DNA of 64,000 nucleotides from an uncultured Clostridium sp. (lineage in GTDB: Bacteria; Bacillota; Clostridia; Ch29), in assembly GCA_964625335.1 (NCBI GenBank), contig CAZVBE010000009.1:13494-77493 (forward strand), written 5' to 3'. Below are positions 3,439-64,000 of the stretch, one piece after another. Under the pieces are notes generated by a model, which was given only the letters and a program-made list of their open reading frames with translations, did not search any database and was not told where the DNA came from. Each line of letters begins with the position of its first letter. The first letter of the stretch is position 1. Made by a program: the position numbers and the translations under genes.

Positions 3439-5621
3439 TTTATAGCCCCCCGCCAATTGGTTTCAATATCCCTCACATCCAGCCCGATTTCTTTTTGCCC
3501 GGCAACTGTAATTTCGAGTTTTTCACCCTTTACCCGGCCAAGTTCCAAGACAGGCACGTCAAACCGGCCTACGATATTTTTCAGCTGTTCCAGCTTTCCC
3601 TTTTCAACCGTAACCAGTATTCTGGATTGGGTTTCGCCAAACAGCAGGAAATCCTTGCGGCCGCAGGTTTCAAACTCCACCTCGGCTCCGAGCCCTCCCG
3701 ATATACAGCTCTCTGCAAGGGCTACCGCCATACCGCCTTCGCTGCAGTCATGGGCTGATTTCACCATACCGCTGTCTATCAGTTCAAGGCAGCAGTCCTG
3801 TAGCCTTTTTTCCTCATCAAGGTTAAGATTAGGGACACTTCCCTTTTCCAAACCATGAACAACCTTCAGGTATTCGCTGCCCCCGGCTTCTTCACCGTTT
3901 TTACCCAGCAGCACTATAATATCCCCTTCGTCCTTAAAGGCCTGGGTTGTTATATTGGCCGTGTTTTCAACAAGTCCCACCATACCCACCACAGGAGTGG
4001 GGAATACGGCATGGGTATCAGTCTCGTTATAAAAGCTTACATTTCCGCTTATTACCGGCGTATCCAGCACCCGACATGCCTCGCTCATCCCCGATACCGC
4101 CTGGCGGAACTGCCAGAATACACCGGGTTTTTCCGGGTTGCCGAAATTGAGACCATCGGTTACCGCCAGCGGTCTAGCACCGCTGCATACAAGGTTCCGG
4201 GCAGCCTCGGCAATCGCAATAGCGCCGCCCACACCCGGGTTAAGGTAGCAGTACCTGCTGTTGCAGTCGGTGGTCAGGGCTATAGCCTTGTTTGTGCCCC
4301 TGATTCTTATAACCGCCGCATCCGAGCCCGGGGCCACCGCAGTATTTGTCATCACCATATGGTCGTACTGCCTGTACACCCATTCCTTGCTGGCGATGCT
4401 GGGGCTTGCCAGCAGCTTCATCAACACCCCGTTTAAATCGGCGGGAATTTCCAGCCTGTCCGCGTCCAAAACCCTAATCTGCTCCAGATAGGAAGGCTCT
4501 TTGTATTCCCTGTGATAAACAGGGGCTTCATCGGCCAGGGACTTTGCGGGGAGTCGTCCTACCACCTGCCCCTTATCCCGTACCGTAAGAATTCCGTCGT
4601 CCGTTACCCGTCCTATTACCGAGGAATGGAGGCCCCATTTCTCAAATACTCCGGTTACCTCCTCTTCCCTGCCTTTCTCCACTATCACAAGCATCCGTTC
4701 CTGGGACTCGGAAATCATAACCTCCACCGGTATCATACCCGTTTCCCTTCGGGGCACCAGGTCCACGTCAATGTCCATGCCGCTGCCGCCTCTGCTGGCA
4801 GTTTCGCTGGAGGCTGATGTGAGCCCCGCCGCTCCCAGGTCCTGCACGCCTATCACGCAGCCGGTATCAAACAGCTCAAGACAAGCCTCCAATAGCAGCT
4901 TTTCCATAAAGGGGTCTCCAACCTGTACCGCCGAACGGTTTTCCTGGGATTCCTGGTTCAGTTCCGTGGATGCAAAGCTGGCGCCGCCCATACCATCCCT
5001 GCCGGTCGGCGCGCCCACAATCATCACGGCATTCCCCGCCCCTGAGGCGGTGCCCTTCTTAATATCCTTATGCCTTATAATGCCCACACACATGGCGTTA
5101 ACCAAGGGGTTTCCCTTATAACAATCATTGAAATACACTTCTCCGCCCACGGTGGGTATACCTATACAGTTTCCGTACCCGCCAATACCCGCCACGACAT
5201 TTTCGAACAGGTATTTTGTCCTGTCGTTATCGAGTTCTCCAAACCGCAGCGAATTAAGCAGCGCCACAGGCCTTGCGCCCATTGTAAAGATATCCCTTAT
5301 AATTCCTCCTGCGCCGGTGGCCGCTCCCTGGTAGGGTTCCACCGCCGACGGGTGGTTGTGGCTTTCTATTTTCATTACCACCGCGAGGCCGTCACCTATA
5401 TCCACTATACCGGCGTTTTCCCCCGGGCCCTGCAGCACCCTTTGACCGGAAGTAGGAAACATCCTCAACACCGGCTTGGAGTTTTTATAGCTGCAGTGCT
5501 CCGACCACATGACGCCGTACAGGTTTAATTCCAGGTTATTGGGCTGTCTGCCGAGGATGTCCACGATCCTGCCGTATTCCCCGGAGGTAAGTCCTACTTT
5601 TTCGTAGGCCTTCTTATCCAT
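3423..5621 (-). CDS. purL: Phosphoribosylformylglycinamidine synthase subunit PurL (FGAM synthase II)
   Basis: 732-aa [51 protein letters not shown]... typical of small PurL. A GAAGGGGGG SD is present. Confidence 0.95.
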
Positions 5622-7841: not shown

Positions 7842-7898
7842 TTTTGTTTACGGGGGGTACGAAATTCGTACGCAGATTTGCCAAAATACAAATCCGCT

Positions 7899-7972
7899 TT
7901 CACCCATAGTCAGGCAATTTACGGTCGCCTGGTAGAGACTTGCGGGCCAATCCCCGCCATTATATGAGTGAA
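7899..7972 (-). promoter_or_regulatory. Purine (guanine-type) riboswitch aptamer, G-box
   Basis: The reverse complement reads cactcatataatggcggggattggcccgcaagtctctaccaggcgaccgtaaattgcctgactatgggtg. This is a close match to the xpt G-box (P1 cactcata/tatgggtg, GGAU..GGCC loop, GUUUCUACC-like junction, CCGUAAAU loop, GACUAUG). Confidence 0.88.
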
Positions 7973-8001
7973 ACAAATTATTAGCTTGTCATTTCACTTT
8001 T

Positions 8002-8265: not shown

Positions 8266-9477
8266 TTATGCGCCGTATTTGTCAAGACGCAGGGCGTTTG
8301 ACAGCAGAAGAGGCATCAGGTGCTTGCTTTCGAAGAATCCGAGGCCGCCTATATTGCACTGGTTTTCGGTAAAGCGCACCGCATCGTCGGCCCCACTAAA
8401 CCGGGAATTCACAAGAACCGGCACCGGATGCCAGCTGTGGGAGCGCATGGGGCACGGCGATGAATGGTCGCCGGTAATGGCCAGTACGCTTGGCCTCTTG
8501 TCTAAAAGTATCGGCAGCGCTTTGTCCACTTTCTCAATCACGCTTACCTTGGTAAGGAACTCTCCGTCCTCACCGGCCTGGTCGGTTCCCTTTACGTGAA
8601 TAAAGAAAAAGTCGTACTTATTATGAAATTCTATATATGTTTTAAACAGACCTTCAATGGAATCCGGAGCGGTCAAAAGGGTCATTCCCAACAGGTCGGC
8701 TATTCCCCTGTACATGGGATAGGAGGCTATGGCTGCGGCCTCCAGTTTGTATTTCTCCTTAAAACCCGGAATCTTAGGCCTTGCCGATATACCCCTTAAA
8801 AGAATCCCGTTGGCCGGATGCTGATCCTTAATAAGGTTTCTGGCTTTATCCAAAAATTTGTTAATAATACCTGCCGTATACGCCGCCTCCTCTTTCTGTT
8901 CCCTGGCCTTAAGGGGTGCAAGGCCTTCGTTCTGTGGGTCGGTATCATATATCGCAGGGTTTAAATTGTCACCCCTCAGTATAACCACAAACCTGTGCCC
9001 CTTGCCCGGTTCAATTATTATCTCAACACCGTCTATTTCCTTTATTTGACTCAATATACCGCACAGCTGGGTTGTTTTTTCGGTGGGTATTCTCCCCGCC
9101 CTTCTGTCTGCTATCAGTCCATCGCTGTCAAGGGTGGCAAAGTTTGCCCTGGCTGCAACATCGTTATGTTTCAATGCCACGCCCAGCCCGACGGCCTCCA
9201 GCACTCCTCTGCCTATTACCACTTCCAGCGGGTCATACCCGAAAATCCCCAGATGCCCTGGACCGCTGCCGGGGGTTATGCCCGGCAAAACCGGAATGTG
9301 TCTGCCGCATACCGATTCCCTTGTAAGAGCATCAATATTGGGCGTGTTTGCGTACTCCAGGGGCGTCTTATTATCAAACCCGGGACTGCGGATATCCCCA
9401 AGCCCGTCCATTACCACCATCACCATCTTGGAATTGTTCTCCTTGATAAGGCCTTCCAGAATGTTATCAGTGTCCAT
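8266..9477 (-). CDS. apgM: 2,3-bisphosphoglycerate-independent phosphoglycerate mutase, archaeal-type (alkaline phosphatase superfamily)
   Basis: 403-aa ORF MDTDNILEGLIKENNSKMVMVVMDGLGD...ITGDHSSP... It has the cofactor-independent PGM/metalloenzyme core, and AGGAGG sits 7 nt upstream. Confidence 0.85.
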   Translation of the reverse strand: MDTDNILEGLIKENNSKMVMVVMDGLGDIRSPGFDNKTPLEYANTPNIDALTRESVCGRHIPVLPGITPGSGPGHLGIFGYDPLEVVIGRGVLEAVGLGVALKHNDVAARANFATLDSDGLIADRRAGRIPTEKTTQLCGILSQIKEIDGVEIIIEPGKGHRFVVILRGDNLNPAIYDTDPQNEGLAPLKAREQKEEAAYTAGIINKFLDKARNLIKDQHPANGILLRGISARPKIPGFKEKYKLEAAAIASYPMYRGIADLLGMTLLTAPDSIEGLFKTYIEFHNKYDFFFIHVKGTDQAGEDGEFLTKVSVIEKVDKALPILLDKRPSVLAITGDHSSPCPMRSHSWHPVPVLVNSRFSGADDAVRFTENQCNIGGLGFFESKHLMPLLLSNALRLDKYGA

Positions 9478-9970
9478 ATTCTAATCCTCCTGTTTTAATA
9501 ATCTTACCCACTGCTCCTGATTTTTATCCTTGATCGCTCTCTTGAACCCTTTTCCAAACAACTTTGTCTAGGCAGTATAGCTTGTGATATTTCTTTAGTT
9601 CCTTCCGAAAAAGTGGGGCTGAAATGCCAATAATATCAATAACAAAAAGGTGTTCTCAGCCTGATGGAGAATCTTTGATGTGGATAAAACCAAGGATAAC
9701 CGCAAAGCTTGATTGTCTCCAAGAATATAATACACTATATTTGCCAATGCGTAAATGCCATCACGCTGCCATAAAAGCGGCCTGTTCCATTGAGATTCGT
9801 ATATTTGGGTTTGTGGTAATAGCTGCAATAGATTTCTTTGCCTTGAAACTTCGCTTATTAGGAAGTACAATTAAATTGCGCCAAAAAATGTTTCCAAACC
9901 TACCGGCGGCATGCCCAAAAAATGTTATGTCATAATAACTACCTGCATTTGTAAATAAGGAGGCAAGGGA

Positions 9971-11419
9971 ATGGCAGATACCGGCGTTAAACGTGGTGCT
10001 ATACATATAAACCTGGACGAACGGAAGCTGTCTGTCATCGTTCATTCCCTGTTTTCCTCCTGGATGCTGGCCTTCCTCTTTGAGGGGCAAATACTCTATT
10101 CCCTCGCCGGCTCCTTTGACCTAAACCCTGCCGTCATGGTCTTCTGTGGAATTGCAGCTATTTTCACCGGGCTGCTGCTATGCGGGTTTCTTATCAAAAC
10201 AAAGAAGGTGGCGCGGCACTTATTCTTATGCTCCTATCCTTTTTTCGCTGTCGTCTCGGTTATCTTTTTCTTCCCGCCGTCTATATTTTGGACTCTTGGA
10301 ATGATTGCCGGCTCTTTTCTGGCCGGAGGCTGTGTAGCGGCCTGGGGTTTTTACTTAAAAAGCAGCACACCGAAAAACGAGCGTATCAAGACGGCCGCCG
10401 ATATGCTTATCTTTTCCAACATCCTTATGATTTTGCTCAACACGACAGCCATTCACCTGTCACCCCGCGTTGGGCTGGCCTCCTCCATGCTCCTGCTTTT
10501 GGGTGCCTTTTTATTTGCGCTGCGGCTTCCTGCAGGTCATGACGACGGTTCCCACGCTTCTTCCCGGCAGAAAAATAACGCAATAAGCATCACGGGGCTG
10601 CTGGCTTTTCTATGCCTCTTTATTGTGATCATCACCATCAACTCAGGGCTGATGTACCAGGTGATTAATCCTGCCTTTGCGCATCTGGAATGGCTGACAG
10701 GCTGGTATTGGGCCATTCCTTATATAGGTGCCCTTTTTATCATGAGAAACTTGCCCCGGAAAACAAACAGGGCTTACATACTCTATGTAGCCATCGCTAT
10801 GATCGGACTTTCGTTTATCGGTTTCATGACCCTTGACCGCACGGTAGCCGGCTATCTCGTGGTCAACACGCTGATGATGGGGGCCTGCGGTGTATACGAT
10901 CTGTTCTGGTGGAGCATCCTCGGTGAGATGCTCGACTTTCATAACAACCCGGCAAAAATCCTAGGCATCGGCCTTTCCGCAAATGTGCTGGGTGTGCTTA
11001 TGGGCGGGATGATCGGCAACTCCGCCGTATCCGGCGGTGGGTACAGCCTGCATCCCACGCTGCTGGCACTTACCGTGGTTTGCGTTACACTTACCCTGCT
11101 GCCGCCTTTGCATAAGCGTTTATCCTTCCTGCTCAAAGACCATGCCTATCTTACGGCATTTTTCGAAATACCTGTGCTGGAAAAAACCAGTCAGGTCGAT
11201 CGCACCCTAATGTCCGGAGGCCTTTCGAAACGGGAAAGCCAGGTCGCATCTTTGCTGCTTCAGGGTAAAACCTATCGGACGATTGCCGGTGAACTTTTTA
11301 TCAGCGAAAACACGGTGAAGTATTACATAAAAAACATCTATTCCAAATTCAATATACAAAGCCGTGCGGAATTAATTGACATCGTACTTAATAAGGAGAG
11401 TACTGCCCGGTCCGGATAG
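9971..11419 (+). CDS. Membrane-anchored LuxR-family transcriptional regulator (about 10 predicted TM helices plus a C-terminal LuxR-type HTH)
   Basis: 482-aa ORF with an AGGAGG SD. It has a long hydrophobic N-terminal region. The C-terminus LSKRESQVASLLLQGKTYRTIAGELFISENTVKYYIKNIYSKFNIQSRAELI is a classic LuxR/FixJ HTH. Confidence 0.8.
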   Translation: MADTGVKRGAIHINLDERKLSVIVHSLFSSWMLAFLFEGQILYSLAGSFDLNPAVMVFCGIAAIFTGLLLCGFLIKTKKVARHLFLCSYPFFAVVSVIFFFPPSIFWTLGMIAGSFLAGGCVAAWGFYLKSSTPKNERIKTAADMLIFSNILMILLNTTAIHLSPRVGLASSMLLLLGAFLFALRLPAGHDDGSHASSRQKNNAISITGLLAFLCLFIVIITINSGLMYQVINPAFAHLEWLTGWYWAIPYIGALFIMRNLPRKTNRAYILYVAIAMIGLSFIGFMTLDRTVAGYLVVNTLMMGACGVYDLFWWSILGEMLDFHNNPAKILGIGLSANVLGVLMGGMIGNSAVSGGGYSLHPTLLALTVVCVTLTLLPPLHKRLSFLLKDHAYLTAFFEIPVLEKTSQVDRTLMSGGLSKRESQVASLLLQGKTYRTIAGELFISENTVKYYIKNIYSKFNIQSRAELIDIVLNKESTARSG

Positions 11420-11435
11420 CACATTCAATAATCAT

Positions 11436-11482
11436 ATGCAAATAAAGCCCCTACCCGAAAAAGGTAGGGGCTTTATTTGCAT
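11436..11482 (+). terminator. Rho-independent terminator with a 20-bp perfect palindrome
   Basis: atgcaaataaagcccctacc-cgaaaaa-ggtaggggctttatttgcat followed by a T-rich tail. It lies immediately 3' of the LuxR-family gene. Confidence 0.8.
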
Positions 11483-11588
11483 AAACTACCCGATTCGGGT
11501 GGGTTCAAGTTTCGTTTATCATGCTAGTATACAATTGGCAACAGATTTTGCCAATCCAATTATAATACGAAAGGGAGTGTTCTCTTTG

Positions 11589-12677
11589 ATGAAAAAGCTA
11601 GTCATCATTCTGGTGCTGGTCATGCTATTTTCAGTTATGACAGCGCTTCCCGCGGCAGCCGCCTTAACTCCCATATCCGGCACGGTGCTCAATGATCAGC
11701 TAAGCTTCAAAATTGGCGGCAAGGCCGCTGTACCGGTAGGGGACGACGGCACGCCGGTGCTGCCCATATCCTATAACGGCACCACATACCTGCCGGTGCG
11801 GGCCATAGGCTATCTGCTAGGGCTTGGAATAGACTGGGACGGCGATACCAATACAGTACTCATCACCAGCTCTGCAACAAAAGCGGCACCCAAAGCCACT
11901 GCAGCTGCCAAAACCAACAAACTGATACCCATTTCCGGGGCGGTACTAAACGATGACCTGAAGTTCAAACTGGACGGCAAGGCCGCTGTACCGGTTGGGG
12001 ACGACGGCACGCCGGTGCTGCCCATATCCTATAACGGCACCACATACCTGCCGGTGCGGGCCATGGGCTATCTGTTGGGGCTTGGAATCGACTGGGACGG
12101 CGGTACCAATACAGTGCTCATCACCAGCTCTGCAACAAAAGCGGCACCCCCGACCGCCGGCGGCGGACCGGGCTGGTATTTCACCAATTGGGAATATATA
12201 AAAAGCCCCGGTGATACGACTGATACGGGGGGAAAGGTAGGAAAATTCGCAAACGGGGACACATATACCGATTACCTGGAAGGCAAGGGCGAGAAGAACG
12301 ATTTCACAATAGTTACGGCACGGAAATTATCAAACGGTACTGTTGCTGCTTCCGGCCATGTAACCACCACATGGACAGACCCGCCTGAATATTTCGGCGC
12401 AAACGACCGGCCTACCATTACCGTTAATCGGACAGTGGATTCCACATGGGGGATCAACGCCTTCTCTATTTCCTTTGATATGCACGATATTAACCCCGGG
12501 GGCGCAACAATGGGCAAAATCAACTTTGCATCGCCTGACGGGCAAACGCACGTACAGGCCTACAAGGGAACCATGCAGATGCAAAAAGCAAAGACGGGTA
12601 AAGCCGGCGACAAGATGGCTGTCATTTTTCATCTGAACTGGTACGGCTTTAAATATTATTACGAGTGGCGGGAATAG
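11589..12677 (+). CDS. Secreted protein with a signal peptide, two tandem ~86-aa copper-amine-oxidase-N-terminal-like (stalk) repeats and a C-terminal domain of unknown function
   Basis: Start ATG at 11589 (or TTG at 11586) after an AAGGGAG SD. The N-terminus MKKLVIILVLVMLFSVMTALPAAAA is a signal peptide. The repeats are of the form ...PVLPISYNGTTYLPVRAIGYLLGLGIDWDG... Confidence 0.8.
   Translation: MKKLVIILVLVMLFSVMTALPAAAALTPISGTVLNDQLSFKIGGKAAVPVGDDGTPVLPISYNGTTYLPVRAIGYLLGLGIDWDGDTNTVLITSSATKAAPKATAAAKTNKLIPISGAVLNDDLKFKLDGKAAVPVGDDGTPVLPISYNGTTYLPVRAMGYLLGLGIDWDGGTNTVLITSSATKAAPPTAGGGPGWYFTNWEYIKSPGDTTDTGGKVGKFANGDTYTDYLEGKGEKNDFTIVTARKLSNGTVAASGHVTTTWTDPPEYFGANDRPTITVNRTVDSTWGINAFSISFDMHDINPGGATMGKINFASPDGQTHVQAYKGTMQMQKAKTGKAGDKMAVIFHLNWYGFKYYYEWRE
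11670..12150 (+). repeat. Intragenic tandem duplication (2 x ~225 bp, period 258 bp), about 90% identical
   Basis: Direct comparison of 11670-11891 with 11928-12150. The last ~170 bp of each copy are nearly identical. Confidence 0.9.
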
Positions 12678-12725
12678 TATACAATTTTTTTAAACCCTAT
12701 ATGTCCCGTGCGAAATGTGCTTGCG

Positions 12726-12765
12726 AAAAGCCCCTTCCCGAAAAAGGCGGGGGCCTTTTTTCGCA
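12726..12765 (+). terminator. Putative rho-independent terminator, paralogous in sequence to the one at 11436
   Basis: aaaagccccttcccgaaaaaggcgggggcctttttt. It has a short GC stem plus T6 and shares AAAGCCCCT.CCCGAAAAAGG with the upstream terminator. Confidence 0.5.
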
Positions 12766-12855
12766 GACTGCCCGGGCCGGGTACTTTTTTCTGTACATAG
12801 ACTGTTATTCTGTTATAGACGGAAAAAATGCTTGACGGTAAAAGGAGGAGTTTGT

Positions 12856-13386
12856 TTGAAGGCGATTATTCGAAGAAGGAATGCCTTTGCAGTTTTTACC
12901 GCACTCGGTGTTACTATCAGCGTTTTGATTATTATATGCGGCATACGTATACCGGAAATCCCCACACGGCTTTTACTCGCTGTCAGCATCCCGTCAAGCG
13001 CATGGCTGGCTGTCTATTGGATACAGGAATACAGGAAACTGCAAACGGCTCAGCTGATAGTTGAAAACCGGATTCTGCACATCTGCACCGCCTCCGCCGG
13101 CGAAGGGGACGGCGATACTGCAAAACCGGAAAATGTTGAGAATACCGAGGTATTTATATCCTACTTTGGTATCCTACTTGACACAAAAATAATCAGATTT
13201 AATCAGGACAAAATCTTTTTGAAAGCCGTAGAAATCGGGCGGGATTTTATCTCCCTCTCTTATGGTACAGATAAAAGGGTACAGAACATACGGTTTCTGC
13301 GTACTGTGACAAGCAGCGAGGAACTAGAAAACATTGTAAAGCAGTTCCGGGATGAAACCGGCATTGTGCCTGTAATAACAGATTAA
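12856..13386 (+). CDS. Hypothetical membrane protein (2 N-terminal TM helices plus a cytoplasmic domain)
   Basis: TTG start at 12856 after an AAAGGAGG SD: MKAIIRRRNAFAVFTALGVTISVLIIICGI... I recognise no family. Confidence 0.55.
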   Translation: MKAIIRRRNAFAVFTALGVTISVLIIICGIRIPEIPTRLLLAVSIPSSAWLAVYWIQEYRKLQTAQLIVENRILHICTASAGEGDGDTAKPENVENTEVFISYFGILLDTKIIRFNQDKIFLKAVEIGRDFISLSYGTDKRVQNIRFLRTVTSSEELENIVKQFRDETGIVPVITD

Positions 13387-13406
13387 TAAAGGGAAGGTGA
13401 GGTTTT

Positions 13407-13982
13407 ATGCACGGATTTTCGCCCAGGATAAGCGACCCGGCCTTTGCTAAATATATCAAAAACACCAACCGCTGGTCGGCCATATTCTCCATCATTGTGG
13501 CCATCGTCGCAGTTATCGGTTTTTATATCGCCGGCGAGAAGGGCGCAGAGGGTATGGATAACCCGCAGTCGCTTTTTATCGGCCTTGGCGTTGGCGGTAT
13601 GTTTGTTGTCATTGCGTTGTTTCAGATTTTAGGCAGAAAGCGCAGTTCAACCTGGGATGGTACGGTGGAGGATAAAAAGGTTAAAAAGAAAACCGAGAAA
13701 CATACCTACGGGGATGGTGATGTCCGGTATGAGGATTATCTTGAATACTCGGTCATAATCCGCAGCGATACCGGAAAAAAACATGTATTAAAGGCAAGAG
13801 ACGACACCACGCTTTATAACTATTATCGCATCGGTGACCGGGTGCGGCATCATGCAGGCTTAAACTCCTACGAGAAATTCGATAAAACAGGCGATAAATT
13901 CATACCCTGCAACGCCTGTGCGAGCTTAAATGATATAAACGACGATTACTGCTTCCGCTGCAAATGCCCGCTGCTGAAGTAA
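13407..13982 (+). CDS. Hypothetical membrane protein with a C-terminal zinc-ribbon-like motif
   Basis: 191-aa ORF, ATG after an AAGGGAAGGTGAGG SD. It has two TM helices, and the C-terminus is CNACASLNDINDDYCFRCKC. Confidence 0.6.
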   Translation: MHGFSPRISDPAFAKYIKNTNRWSAIFSIIVAIVAVIGFYIAGEKGAEGMDNPQSLFIGLGVGGMFVVIALFQILGRKRSSTWDGTVEDKKVKKKTEKHTYGDGDVRYEDYLEYSVIIRSDTGKKHVLKARDDTTLYNYYRIGDRVRHHAGLNSYEKFDKTGDKFIPCNACASLNDINDDYCFRCKCPLLK

Positions 13983-14082
13983 TAAAAAAATAAATTTTCC
14001 GGTTGCGGTTGAAAAAAACAGTTTACGAATCGATTCACTGGTAAAGACATGGAACGAGTCGGGGATCAGCGCGCAAATCAAG

Positions 14083-14116
14083 GGGGACCGGCGGTGAACC
14101 GCGGACCGGTCCCCCG
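14083..14116. other. GC-rich 10-bp-stem hairpin gggggaccgg-N14-ccggtccccc, followed by an 11-bp palindrome ccctattaggg
   Basis: The perfect inverted repeat is seen directly in the sequence. There is no clean T-tract, so its function is unclear. Confidence 0.5.
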
Positions 14117-14178
14117 CATACTGATTACCCTATTAGGGATAACCCTTGCCCCTACTTATGTTTCCGGGGGCTTTGCGA

Positions 14179-14223
14179 AGCAAGAGAACCGTCCCCTTGC
14201 TTTTTCTCCCCCTTGCTTTCCTG
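14179..14223. repeat. One full plus one degenerate copy of the 22-nt palindromic unit aagcaagAGAACCGTCCCcttgcttt, flanking the guaA 3' fragment
   Basis: The same unit occurs three times in tandem at 14980-15058. Each unit can fold as a 7-bp stem aagcaag/cttgctt. Confidence 0.85.
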
Positions 14224-14979
14224 TTATTCCCACTCTATGGTACCCGGCGGTTTTGTGGTGATATCGTAAACCACCCGGTTAATACCCTTTACATTGTTTA
14301 CAATTCTTGATGATATGGTCTCCAGCACACGATAGGGTATTTTGGCCCAGTCTGCCGTCATACCGTCCGAGCTGGTTACAGCCCTTACAGCCACCACATG
14401 GTCGTAGGTCCTTTCATCCCCCATAACGCCAACCGATTTGACGTCCGGCAGCACGGCAAAATACTGCCATATTTCCCTTTCCAGGCCGGCGTTTGCTATC
14501 TCTTGTCTTACTATTGCATCGGCTTCCTTCAATATTTTAAGTTTGTCCCCTGTTATATTGCCTATTACCCGTATGGCAAGACCGGGCCCCGGAAATGGCT
14601 GCCGCCATACCTGCTGTGCCGGAATCCCGAGGTCGGTTCCCACCTTCCTTACCTCATCCTTGAAAAGTGACCTCAAGGGTTCAATAAGGGAAAGGGTCAT
14701 ATCCTCAGGCAGTCCGCCGACATTGTGATGGCTCTTTATTACCGAGGCCACCTTGCTTCCGCTCTCTATCACATCGGGATAGATTGTTCCCTGTACGAGA
14801 AAATCCACCTTTCCGAGCTTACCCGCCTCTTCCTCGAACACCCTTATGAATTCCCCGCCAATTATCTTCCTTTTTGCTTCGGGGTCGGTTATGCCTTCCA
14901 GCCGGCTTAAAAATCTGTCTCTGGCGTCCACCGTAATAAGGTTTATGTTAAACAGGTCCCTGAATACCCTTTCCACCTG
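14224..14979 (-). pseudogene. Exact 756-bp duplicate of the 3' end of guaA, encoding the C-terminal 251 codons with no PP-loop, SD or promoter
   Basis: 100% nucleotide identity between 14224-14979 and 15059-15814 (offset 835). The six-frame ORFs on both strands are identical between the two regions. Confidence 0.85.
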
Positions 14980-15058
14980 GAAGCAAGAGAACCGTCCCCT
15001 TGCTTTCCCTTGCAGAGAACCGTCCCCTTGCTTTCGAGAGAACCGTCCCCTTGCTTTC
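14980..15058. repeat. Tandem array of three copies (periods 28, 28, 23 nt) of the unit GAGAACCGTCCCCTTGCTTTC, between the guaA fragment and the full-length guaA stop codon
   Basis: gaagcaagagaaccgtccccttgctttc / ccttgcagagaaccgtccccttgctttc / gagagaaccgtccccttgctttc. Confidence 0.9.
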
Positions 15059-16597
15059 TTATTCCCACTCTATGGTACCCGGCGGTTTTGTGGTGATATC
15101 GTAAACCACCCGGTTAATACCCTTTACATTGTTTACAATTCTTGATGATATGGTCTCCAGCACACGATAGGGTATTTTGGCCCAGTCTGCCGTCATACCG
15201 TCCGAGCTGGTTACAGCCCTTACAGCCACCACATGGTCGTAGGTCCTTTCATCCCCCATAACGCCAACCGATTTGACGTCCGGCAGCACGGCAAAATACT
15301 GCCATATTTCCCTTTCCAGGCCGGCGTTTGCTATCTCTTGTCTTACTATTGCATCGGCTTCCTTCAATATTTTAAGTTTGTCCCCTGTTATATTGCCTAT
15401 TACCCGTATGGCAAGACCGGGCCCCGGAAATGGCTGCCGCCATACCTGCTGTGCCGGAATCCCGAGGTCGGTTCCCACCTTCCTTACCTCATCCTTGAAA
15501 AGTGACCTCAAGGGTTCAATAAGGGAAAGGGTCATATCCTCAGGCAGTCCGCCGACATTGTGATGGCTCTTTATTACCGAGGCCACCTTGCTTCCGCTCT
15601 CTATCACATCGGGATAGATTGTTCCCTGTACGAGAAAATCCACCTTTCCGAGCTTACCCGCCTCTTCCTCGAACACCCTTATGAATTCCCCGCCAATTAT
15701 CTTCCTTTTTGCTTCGGGGTCGGTTATGCCTTCCAGCCGGCTTAAAAATCTGTCTCTGGCGTCCACCGTAATAAGGTTTATGTTAAACAGGTCCCTGAAT
15801 ACCCTTTCCACCTGTATCTCCTCGTCCTTGCGCAAAAGACCGTGGTTTACAAATATGCAGGTAAGCCGGTCTCCTACCGCTCTGTGCACCAAAACCGCAG
15901 CCACAGAGGAATCCACACCGCCGCTTAGGGCGCACACGACTTTTTTGCCGCCCACCGTTTCCCGGATGCTTTTTACCTGGTCCTCGATAAAACCGCTCAT
16001 GTCCCAGTCGGGCTTGCAGTCGCATATATCAAATATGAAATTGGACAAAAGCTCCGGGCCTATTGGCGTGTGCTCTACCTCCGGATGAAACTGGACCGCA
16101 TAAAGCTTTCTCTCGACATCCGCCATGGCGGCTACCGGACAGCCTTCTGTGACGGCGGTTATTTCAAAACCCTCGGGAGGCCTGTCGATATAACAGGTAT
16201 GACTCATCCAGCATACGGTTTGGCCTTCAATATTCTTAAAAATATGCTGCTGTTCCTTTATATATAAATCCGTCTTTCCGTATTCCCTGGACGGAGCCTT
16301 TTTAACGCTGCCGCCAAAAACATGGGCAATAAGCTGTGCTCCGTAGCAAATCCCCAGAATGGGTATGCCCATTTCAAGTACATCTTTATGGCACACGGGG
16401 GCGCCCTCTTCAAATACGCTGCTTGGCCCCCCTGTTAAGATTATCCCCTTTGGGTTTTTTGCCCTTATCTCGTCGGGGGAAGTGTCGTAGGGCAGTACTT
16501 CGCTGTAAACATGCAAATCCCTTATCCTTCTGGCTATTAACTGGTTATACTGACCTCCAAAATCCAGTACTAAAATTCTGTCGGTTGGCTGTGTCAT
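15059..16597 (-). CDS. guaA: GMP synthase (glutamine-hydrolysing)
   Basis: 512-aa [42 protein letters not shown]... with the GATase domain and the PP-loop SGGVDSSV. It follows guaB directly, so the two form an operon. Confidence 0.96.
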
Positions 16598-16612: not shown

Positions 16613-18091
<1,479 letters not shown>

Positions 18092-18937: not shown

Positions 18938-20584
<1,647 letters not shown>

Positions 20585-63849: not shown

Positions 63850-64000
63850 GTAAAATAAAAAGCCCCCTTATGTATAAGGAGGTTATTATACCACCTTATC
63901 TTACAGAATATAAAATCCTGTGGGAATTGGCACCATAGCTCAAATACGCCGGTTGCCGGGTTTCATAGGGCCCTTGTCCCTCCACCTCTCTTGATAAGGT
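63850..64000 (-). promoter_or_regulatory. SAM-I (S-box) riboswitch upstream of metK. The aptamer runs to the window edge and may be cut by a few nt.
   Basis: The reverse complement of 63893-64000 reads accttatcaagagaggtggagggacaagggccctatgaaacccggcaaccggcg...ggtgccaattcccacagg...ctgtaagataagg, which is the S-box consensus (CUCUUAUCAAGAGAGGUGGAGGGAC...AUGAAACCCGGCAACC...GGUGCCAAUUCC). The expression platform 63850-63892 contains an anti-SD, CCTCCTTA. Confidence 0.88.

Follow-up and report, generated by a model that had tools for sequence, protein, structure and literature searches.

A probable tandem partial duplication of guaA with putative REP-type hairpins at its joint in an uncultured Clostridium

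The guaA locus and its hairpin arrays

We analyzed a 64,000-nt stretch of DNA (the window) from an uncultured Clostridium sp. (GenBank assembly GCA_964625335.1, contig CAZVBE010000009.1, positions 13,494 to 77,493 of the forward strand), in which the GMP synthase gene guaA is followed by a second copy of its own 3' end. Positions 14224-14979 equal 15059-15814 base for base over 756 bp, as the initial annotation had reported, and the identity ends exactly there, with no extension on either side. Read along the guaA sense strand, the order is guaA, a cluster of putative repetitive extragenic palindromic (REP) units that we call J, the partial copy guaA' (the last 756 bp of the gene), a second REP cluster, B, and an accessory island, with groES/groEL and guaB lying upstream of guaA (Table 1). 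All coordinates are those of the window unless a contig is named, and the positions of variable sites within the repeat (78-600) are counted on the guaA sense strand.

The copy guaA', with its reading frame at 14224-14976, begins at GuaA residue 261, past the PP-loop motif SGGVDS that the translation places at residues 224-229, and GMP_synt_C is the only domain detected in it with Pfam. A GTG at the joint is the sole start codon; the frame runs open into J, which holds no start codon, no Shine-Dalgarno sequence was found for guaA', and a scan of 13900-15200 returned neither a promoter-like nor a terminator-like site. Because the PP-loop, a promoter and a Shine-Dalgarno sequence are missing, guaA' is probably a truncated, non-functional fragment of guaA, in agreement with its earlier description as a pseudogene. 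Its product is called as a 250-aa gene in six contigs (three variants, by cluster look-up), and an exact look-up of the 250-aa product with V as first residue gave no match. We suppose that guaA' is co-transcribed with guaA as an extended 3' untranslated region (UTR); it is probably an inert passenger between two REP clusters.

The 79 nt of J are laid out as GAAGCA, 22-mer, CCTTGC, 22-mer, G and 22-mer, with exact copies of the 22-mer AGAGAACCGTCCCCTTGCTTTC at 14986, 15014 and 15037 (start-to-start spacings of 28 and 23 nt). The claim that this junction consists of three tandem 22-mers only was thus right about the three exact copies but overlooked the fillers of 6, 6 and 1 nt. Beyond guaA', B contains the fourth 22-mer, with one mismatch, at 14183-14204 and a duplicated arm, CCCCTTGCTTTC, at 14209-14220, which correspond to the fourth copy and half copy noted before, and then CTG beside the guaA' stop codon. 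The 22-mer was found nowhere else in the 64 kb, and shuffled sequences gave no matches. It had been proposed that every unit can form a hairpin; both arms are present in just one unit per array, the complete hairpin at 14980-15007 that abuts guaA' in J and the one at 14177-14204 in B, and the other two units of J are 3'-truncated, consisting of the 5' arm and the core.

The proposed structure, a 7-bp stem with GGGACGG as the sense-strand loop, was likewise superseded: on the guaA sense strand the unit folds best into a stem of 13 bp, two of them G.U pairs, closed by a CGG triloop (-15.3 kcal/mol, z = -4.8 for the 29-nt unit), and the opposite strand folds more weakly (-10.3 kcal/mol). The hairpins at the guaA locus are followed by CAGGTGG or GCAAAG and by no T-run, and no intrinsic (Rho-independent) terminator, a GC-rich hairpin with a T-run behind it, was recognized in 13900-15200; T-runs do follow some members of the repeat family elsewhere (contigs L093 and L094). 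A GC-rich palindrome at 14082-14115 is a possible candidate for a bidirectional transcript end, judging by its sequence, and it too falls outside the criteria of the terminator scan and lacks a T-run. Rfam returned nothing relevant in the window at the gathering threshold, nor in 13900-15200 at E<=5, and ARAGORN found no tRNA and no tmRNA.

Table 1. Positions of the guaA locus features and of other elements in the window
Feature	Position	Strand	Basis or remark
Purine riboswitch	7887-7987	minus	Rfam gathering threshold
Phosphoglycerate-mutase-like gene	8266-9477	minus	Counterpart of the gene following guaA in relatives
Accessory island between guaA and the mutase-like gene	9478-14176	plus	Pfam and relatives
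GerE/LuxR regulator (island)	9971-11419		Pfam
Cu_amine_oxidN1 protein (island)	11376-12677		Pfam
GC-rich 10-bp palindrome, GGGGGACCGG...CCGGTCCCCC	14082-14115		Read from sequence; between the island's last gene and B
Distal array B, 47 nt	14177-14223	minus	Identical in five assemblies
Partial copy guaA', residues 261-512, probable pseudogene in the guaA 3' UTR	14224-14979	minus	GMP_synt_C only
Joint array J, 79 nt, three REP-type units	14980-15058	minus	Identical in five assemblies
Repeat copy within full-length guaA, last 756 bp with stop codon	15059-15814	minus	Identity to 14224-14979
Full-length guaA (GMP synthase, 512 aa)	15059-16597	minus	Pfam GATase, NAD_synthase/PP-loop region, GMP_synt_C
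guaB	16613-18070	minus	Upstream of guaA
9-nt tandem repeat CCATTCCGC, 3.9 copies, groEL 3' end	18949-18983		
raiA RNA motif, 190 bits	47531-47744	minus	Rfam gathering threshold
SAM-I riboswitch at window edge	63893-64000	minus	Rfam gathering threshold

Recurrence of the junction and divergence of the copies

Four contigs of the same locus were recovered from Joint Genome Institute (JGI) metagenome assemblies: L001 (sample 3300033163) was reached by the exact GuaA protein, and L110 (sample 3300033166), L111 (sample 3300037528) and L112 (sample 3300033161) were reached via the cluster of the 250-aa fragment. All four are collinear with the window, and their J (79 nt) and B (47 nt) are identical to those of the window. 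Because both arrays recur in all four, the joint between hairpin foot and mid-guaA sequence is reproducible in five assemblies (the window and the four from JGI) and is not a one-off assembly error. We therefore consider it very unlikely that the structure is purely an assembly artefact, as had been suggested, with no genome carrying two copies and a graph loop from mixed strains or a chimeric path accounting for them. All the assemblies were apparently built from short metagenomic reads, phasing has clearly failed in the interior of the repeat and the L112 contig breaks within it, as such an artefact would have it; yet real molecules must contain the adjacency TGCTTC/CAGGTGG (the slash marking the joint) and the guaA end in its two contexts (J and B), which recur in five assemblies from at least five datasets, and in three assemblies the copy-specific variants at sites 78 and 87 go with different left flanks.

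Seven sites vary within the 756-bp repeat (78, 87, 363, 529, 585, 592 and 600). Sites 78 and 87, which lie within k-mer reach of the left boundary of the repeat, read T,T in the full-length copy versus G,C in the partial copy of L001, L110 and L111; at the five interior sites any given assembly has matching bases in its two copies, and these bases vary from one assembly to another. The L112 contig breaks off within the full-length copy, and its sites 529-600 read TGGT in that copy versus CAAC in the partial one. The window is a mosaic at the seven sites (G C A C G G T), and outside the repeat the JGI assemblies show zero differences among themselves over 8.7 kb of shared unique sequence. Six of the copy differences are synonymous and one exchanges Val and Ile, the partial copy retaining the Ile of all outgroups; with outgroups 74-84% identical at the DNA level, polarizing the seven differences is only suggestive.

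The simplest reading of these sequences is that the copies truly differ at seven or more sites, about 0.9%, and we infer that the 100% identity seen in the window most likely reflects either collapse of the repeat in short-read assembly or gene conversion. Where a repeat interior cannot be phased, short-read assemblers output a single consensus and would thereby hide the divergence; the outcome of gene conversion would look the same. Since two versions of the segment coexist either way, perfect identity does not imply a very recent event, which is what the initial annotation had concluded from it. The same structure with mutations between the copies, an arrangement named at the time as speaking against recency, is what the JGI assemblies contain, with the seven variable sites in four other assemblies and L112 showing four further copy differences. 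For a caution of wider use, an exact long repeat in a short-read metagenome-assembled genome (MAG) is no evidence of a recent event when the assembler cannot phase its interior, and hidden divergence is exposed by comparing several assemblies of one population.

Collapse to the same path would also be expected if the locus held a higher-order array (R-J)n with n>2, R being the repeat, or if a single chromosomal copy coexisted with an 835-bp R+J circle, as assemblers would traverse a simple loop once and the graph topology would be the same in all cases. L112, however, ties the full-length haplotype to J and the partial haplotype to B, as in a chromosomal tandem, and the 835-bp unit has no replication or mobilization function, so that we regard these arrangements as quite unlikely.

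Outside the repeat, over about 12 kb, the window departs from the four JGI assemblies in two tight clusters only, with 22 differences across 473 bp in the gene for the GerE regulator (10165-10637) and 10 across 163 bp in that for the Cu_amine_oxidN1 protein (12425-12587), 12 amino-acid changes among them. Both clusters look like recombination tracts or collapsed paralogues; an origin resembling that of diversity-generating retroelements was rejected for both, the substitutions being of all types and not adenine-specific.

Relatives were compared for the arrangement downstream of guaA. No close relative was present among the GTDB species representatives, where the best guaA match is 67% identical, and none of 80 distant guaA loci (0/80) has a second guaA end. 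In the metagenomic relatives L100-L102, L104 and L105/L106, with GuaA 79-86% identical, the mutase-like gene comes 25-50 nt after guaA, and the comparison recommended in the initial annotation duly showed a single guaA end in all of L100-L106. L103 has the island directly after the guaA stop codon, with neither a hairpin nor a duplicated guaA end, and this hairpin-free state reads TAA-AGCA-GCAAGCCCC. As L103 and L104 (no island, the mutase gene directly after guaA) encode an identical GuaA protein (P0004), the island is polymorphic within a species-level group. In the ancestral state, as reconstructed from these contigs, guaA was followed by the mutase-like gene; because L103 has the island alone, the island was inserted first, and the hairpins and the duplication followed.

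In streptococci, elements are known to integrate at the guaA 3' end, and one earlier suggestion was that the duplication is the footprint of an element targeting it, the two copies being attL and attR of a site-specific integrative element that was mostly lost. The resemblance lies in a duplicated guaA 3' end beside accessory DNA, and the variable island directly downstream of guaA, polymorphic between L103 and L104, would suit such an origin. In the streptococcal elements, however, short att repeats flank a recombinase-bearing element, whereas here the 756-bp repeat far exceeds att cores and adjoins itself, its copies lying 79 nt apart and not flanking the island. Besides the two genes in Table 1, the island holds open reading frames (ORFs) of 223 and 191 aa without a family match in Pfam, which detected no integrase or recombinase domain there either, and in L103 the island abuts the guaA stop codon without a duplicated end. 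We find this origin barely credible.

The 22-mer as part of a REP-type family

The 22-mer is not local to guaA, a point missed in the initial annotation, and belongs instead to a widespread family of the type associated with REP-associated tyrosine transposases (RAYTs). The 21-mer common to all four window units is matched exactly by 18 metagenome contigs (31-55% GC), whose flanks are unrelated, and the core-covering 16-mer AAGGGGACGGTTCTCT occurs exactly in seven viral contigs (IMG/VR), with three tandem 39-nt units in L116/L117; a 25-mer was absent from the viral contigs. The apex 13-mer GGGGACGGTTCTC is constant in 41 distinct instances, and the arms flanking it vary yet remain complementary. 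At least six different stems were seen (AAGCAA/TTGCTT, GAGACA/TGTCTC, CAATCAA/TGATTGG, GGAAC/GTTCC, GTTGTCAG/CTGACAAC and GGGGACAA/TTGTCCCC), and five or more flank-to-flank pairs form in 31 of the 41 instances folded. An ORF on the same strand stops within 60 nt upstream of 19 of 42 cores (the opposite arrangement occurs 9 times), and the genes upstream of the 22-mer elsewhere are ordinary housekeeping genes unrelated to one another, among them those for a glycoside hydrolase (GH26), an alpha-amylase, a short-chain dehydrogenase/reductase (SDR), an Opp ATPase, CTP synthase and an RCC1-repeat protein. The 10-mer GGGACGGTTC is found 0 times in 921 kb of other Firmicutes guaA loci and 6 times in 41.8 kb of clade relatives, one of these sites being an orthologous position, after the mutase gene, in two species. 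Cores also come as inverted pairs (L083, L092, L094, L104, L105 and L088) and in tandem clusters (J in the window, L086, L093 and L116/L117). By its sequence, the 22-nt unit is a REP-type extragenic palindrome that carries an invariant apex on a variable, complementary stem.

Several contigs illustrate how such elements are arranged. In L105 (7794-7840) and L104 (2942-2975), from species about 80% identical, two inverted REP cores together make up a long palindrome immediately downstream of the mutase gene, with the cores conserved and the sequence between them unrelated. The contig L095, with L114 as its NCBI counterpart, comes from Candidatus Humimicrobiaceae (Actinomycetota); both carry a 27-nt hairpin after pyrG (4070-4097 and 9617-9644, respectively, with one core base changed in L114); it is missing from the corresponding site of a relative, L113 (3114-3180), which is 91% identical in CTP synthase, making this a presence/absence polymorphism in Actinomycetota. 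A 168-bp REP-hairpin block is directly repeated in L088 (186-353 and 1511-1667) around a gene for a YhcG/DUF1016 PDDEXK nuclease, and one boundary of the repeat falls inside the 13-nt core, giving a hybrid hairpin with the GAGACA 5' arm and the TTGCTTTC 3' arm; L088 is thus a second genome in which REP-type elements mark the breakpoints of a rearrangement. A complete hairpin often has ahead of it one to four 3'-truncated repeats of its 5' arm with the first G's of the core, irrespective of the stem sequence, an example being four copies of GGTTGTCAGG ahead of GGGGACGGTTCTC-CTGACAAC. Such runs occur in L116 (13630-13700), L107 (6920-6960), L100 (8800-8870), near cores in L084, L097 and L083, and in the window (14177-14223), and they look like reiterated abortive copying or hairpin-driven slippage.

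Other identities for the repeat were considered and rejected. Blastn against PLSDB gave 70 Enterococcus plasmid matches (22/24 nt, E=0.9) that lie inside insertion sequence (IS) transposase coding sequences and are due to chance, and phage matches of the hairpin were at chance level. Recoding elements similar to selenocysteine or pyrrolysine insertion sequences (SECIS/PYLIS) do not fit, the preceding stops being TAA, TGA or TAG and the ORFs ending there, and neither do CRISPR (clustered regularly interspaced short palindromic repeat) or type III antitoxin arrays, as spacers and a downstream toxin gene are both absent. In the library searched, no paper on this REP/RAYT system of Gram-positive anaerobes was found, and full texts queried with the core sequence yielded nothing but C. 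elegans primers unrelated to it.

A transposase gene lies between inverted cores in some of these genomes. The ORF at 1118-1927 of L098 encodes a Y1/HUH transposase (Pfam Y1_Tnp, 3.9e-15, with HVH and YIHQNP motifs) that passes the NCBIfam model NF047646, "REP-associated tyrosine transposase" (83.5 bits versus a cut-off of 80), finds E. coli TnpA_REP (4ER8) as its best match in the PDB and is enclosed by inverted cores at 1028(+) and 1947(-). In L082, the gene for a 39%-identical homologue (692-1327) sits between inverted cores at 658(+) and 1379(-). The NCBIfam IS200 model stays far under its cut-off (26.5 versus 55). These transposases are about 257-269 aa long with a C-terminal extension, and their family has thousands of members in Bacillota, many annotated RayT; a RAYT copy in Cytobacillus comes with a variant core. 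Geosporobacter ferrireducens (complete genome CP017269, L122) holds two RAYT-like genes 10 kb apart (10001-10780 and 19787-20566), each with GAAGCTA-AGGGACGGTTCTC-TTGCTTC upstream and an inverted variant just past its stop codon. The RAYT-like family may thus behave as a multi-copy IS, unlike the single-copy domesticated RAYTs of Proteobacteria. A 191-aa ORF beside a Geosporobacter RAYT was considered as a relative of the 191-aa ORF of the island and proved unrelated (blastp E=0.95). With a RAYT flanked by inverted cores in three organisms, the genomic arrangement ties the repeats to the transposase, and inverted cores around a RAYT amount to the REPtron architecture as previously defined (PMC2817692, PMC3333891).

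Among the closest known systems are REPs and bacterial interspersed mosaic elements (BIMEs) with their RAYT (TnpA_REP), the REPtrons of E. coli, Pseudomonas and Stenotrophomonas (PMC2817692, PMC3116915, PMC3333891, PMC3479197). Like REPs and BIMEs, the repeats are imperfect extragenic palindromes of 20-40 nt, often just past stop codons, and come as singlets, inverted pairs and tandem clusters of varying copy number; like REPtrons, they place a Y1/HUH transposase gene between inverted repeats and have covarying stems around a short invariant sequence. That invariant part is here the hairpin apex GGGGACGGTTCTC, whereas in REPtrons it is a GTAG tag at the 5' foot. The hosts differ as well, being Bacillota, namely Clostridia and, for a variant core, Bacilli, together with one or more Actinomycetota MAGs, as do the C-terminally extended transposase of about 257-269 aa, which can be multi-copy (Geosporobacter), and the low REP density of this window.

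The GTAG and CGTC superfamilies also comprise short palindromes spread across several phyla, with no Firmicutes listed (PMC3733652), and CGTC does appear on one strand of the core. CGTC REPs have an unpaired terminal tag, an 8-9 bp stem, a 4-5 nt loop, a CCA tail and no transposase (PMC3733652), whereas here CGTC lies within a paired apex and a RAYT is associated. Membership among the CGTC-tagged REPs was rejected, as tag position, loop size and tail do not fit, and the 22-mer family, as far as its sequence goes, falls outside both described superfamilies.

The spread of the family also bears on whether the array is a dedicated regulatory RNA of guaA, a terminator/attenuator or a protein sponge with GGA loops, and guaA' is kept for a function. 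A strong hairpin on the sense strand, an array directly after the stop codon and a set of copy differences of which 6/7 are synonymous would suit that role. The same element follows unrelated genes in other phyla, however, it has no T-run and no Rfam match, close relatives lack a hairpin after guaA, and an excess of synonymous changes is expected anyway when the functional copy supplies most of the derived ones. Such a function strikes us as extremely improbable.

Formation of the joint

We consider it probable that the locus is a real tandem partial duplication of guaA with REP-type hairpins at its joint, an inert guaA' and copies that are not truly identical. By analogy with REPs and BIMEs, the hairpins may mark or stabilize mRNA 3' ends, and the units would amplify locally by slippage or RAYT action, which would account for three units in J versus 1.5 in B. 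By the same analogy, the hairpins would be a fragile or recombinogenic site, either the place where the joint arose or that of its later remodelling. The earlier suggestion of a recombinogenic array is supported, the repeat unit being by itself a recombinogenic, amplifiable element. In E. coli, the copy number of BIMEs varies between strains, which has been ascribed to slippage or RAYT-mediated recombination, and RAYT cleaves and rejoins single-stranded REP/BIME DNA in vitro (PMC3333891).

A number of points weigh against this reading. Copy number and phasing are deduced from contigs, and the four JGI assemblies form one sample series and hence sample one population. REP density is low, with all four window cores at a single locus, and no RAYT gene lies within the 64 kb. 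Only the L098 transposase reaches the cut-off of NF047646; L082, P0283 and P0349 score 64-78 bits, although it is the best family for each of them. Measured against published criteria (PMC3733652, PMC3333891), the hairpin has no GTAG at its foot, and its CGTC lies inside the paired apex and is not a terminal tag. If the hairpin predates the duplication, the joint TGCTTC/CAGGTGG is without microhomology, so simple slippage does not explain it. Finally, J starts TAA/GAAAGC and B starts TAA-CAG/GAAAGC, so J is not merely an expanded copy of B.

With the hairpins in place first, a joint exactly at the hairpin foot would be consistent with a Y1 enzyme having cut and rejoined the DNA, or with end joining at a hairpin that was stalled or cleaved. 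The differing starts of J and B can also be accommodated by the reverse order, in which recombination or slippage took place between the ACAGG after the guaA stop codon (TAACAGG) and an ACAGG within guaA (ATACAGG, 15814/15815), leaving a clean 756-bp period into which REPs were then independently inserted, between TAA and CAG for J and between CAG and G for B. Without J, the joint reads GAATAA/CAGGTGG, with the 5-nt ACAGG at both parental sites, and a REP-free joint would be expected to read TAACAGGTGG; this order would explain why J lacks the CAG that precedes B. Elsewhere, REP units of the family repeatedly lie 0-10 nt past stop codons, and a hairpin-free state existed (L103). It requires, however, two independent REP insertions 3 nt apart, the 5-nt match was recognized post hoc with the insertion point free to choose and is weak evidence, and a duplication without hairpins is seen in none of the assemblies. 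We hold this order of events possible, if on balance doubtful.

The more active version of the hairpin-first order, in which a RAYT or another HUH enzyme, acting on single-stranded DNA, cleaved the 3' foot of the REP hairpin and linked it to a pseudo-site within guaA, seems rather unlikely to us. The segment from the guaA site to the hairpin foot would have been copied in tandem, like an IS200/IS605 circle junction or in a Helitron-like capture, with a presumed cut after ...CTTGCTTC at the hairpin foot and a guaA site reading ATA/CAGG. The breakpoint does lie exactly at the foot of a complete hairpin and without microhomology, the repeat family is RAYT-associated, the cleavage and rejoining of single-stranded REP/BIME DNA by RAYT is documented in vitro (PMC3333891), and the 168-bp direct repeat of L088 likewise ends inside the core and forms a hybrid hairpin. 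Yet no RAYT was seen in this genome, of which the 64 kb window was covered, the hairpin foot (cut after TTC) and the guaA site (cut after ATA) share no cleavage consensus, and L088 is a single analogy that short homology within the core explains equally well.

IS200/IS605 elements are similar in having a HUH Y1 enzyme between hairpins that cuts at defined positions by the hairpin feet, and cleavage of this type would be a possible homology-free way to make the joint. They differ in that a RAYT model is the best match for the transposase here and that the hairpins are dispersed as solo elements. REP-mediated tandem chromosomal duplications with a REP at the join point have reportedly been found in Salmonella and E. 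coli (Shyamala, Schneider and Ames, EMBO J 1990). The present locus would resemble them in having a REP element at the novel joint of a tandem duplication; those duplications are said to arise by REP-REP exchange at both ends, whereas here a REP lies at the distal end only and the proximal end is in the guaA coding sequence.

More speculatively, and with little probability in our view, the 13-nt apex, shared by Clostridia, Bacilli (in variant form), an Actinomycetota MAG and viral contigs, may have been kept across phyla by horizontal spread or by a widely shared RAYT, guaA' may be a fragment captured and duplicated in a Helitron-like manner when a RAYT cleaved the hairpin foot, and the runs of truncated units may be the trace of that process.

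Taken as a probable duplication with REP-type hairpins at its joint, the locus is a real but ordinary structural variant, and the repeat family is of more interest than the duplication, as the 22-mer leads to a REP/RAYT system of Gram-positive anaerobes in which the conserved part is the apex and not a tag at the foot. If the transposase acts on these hairpins, REP/RAYT biology would extend beyond Proteobacteria, and the hairpins would offer a defined substrate for studying how REP-type elements give rise to small structural variants beside essential genes.

Elsewhere, the window contains two riboswitches, a raiA RNA motif and a short tandem repeat (Table 1). The repeat, at the groEL end, is nothing unusual and probably codes for the customary Gly-Gly-Met tail at the C terminus.

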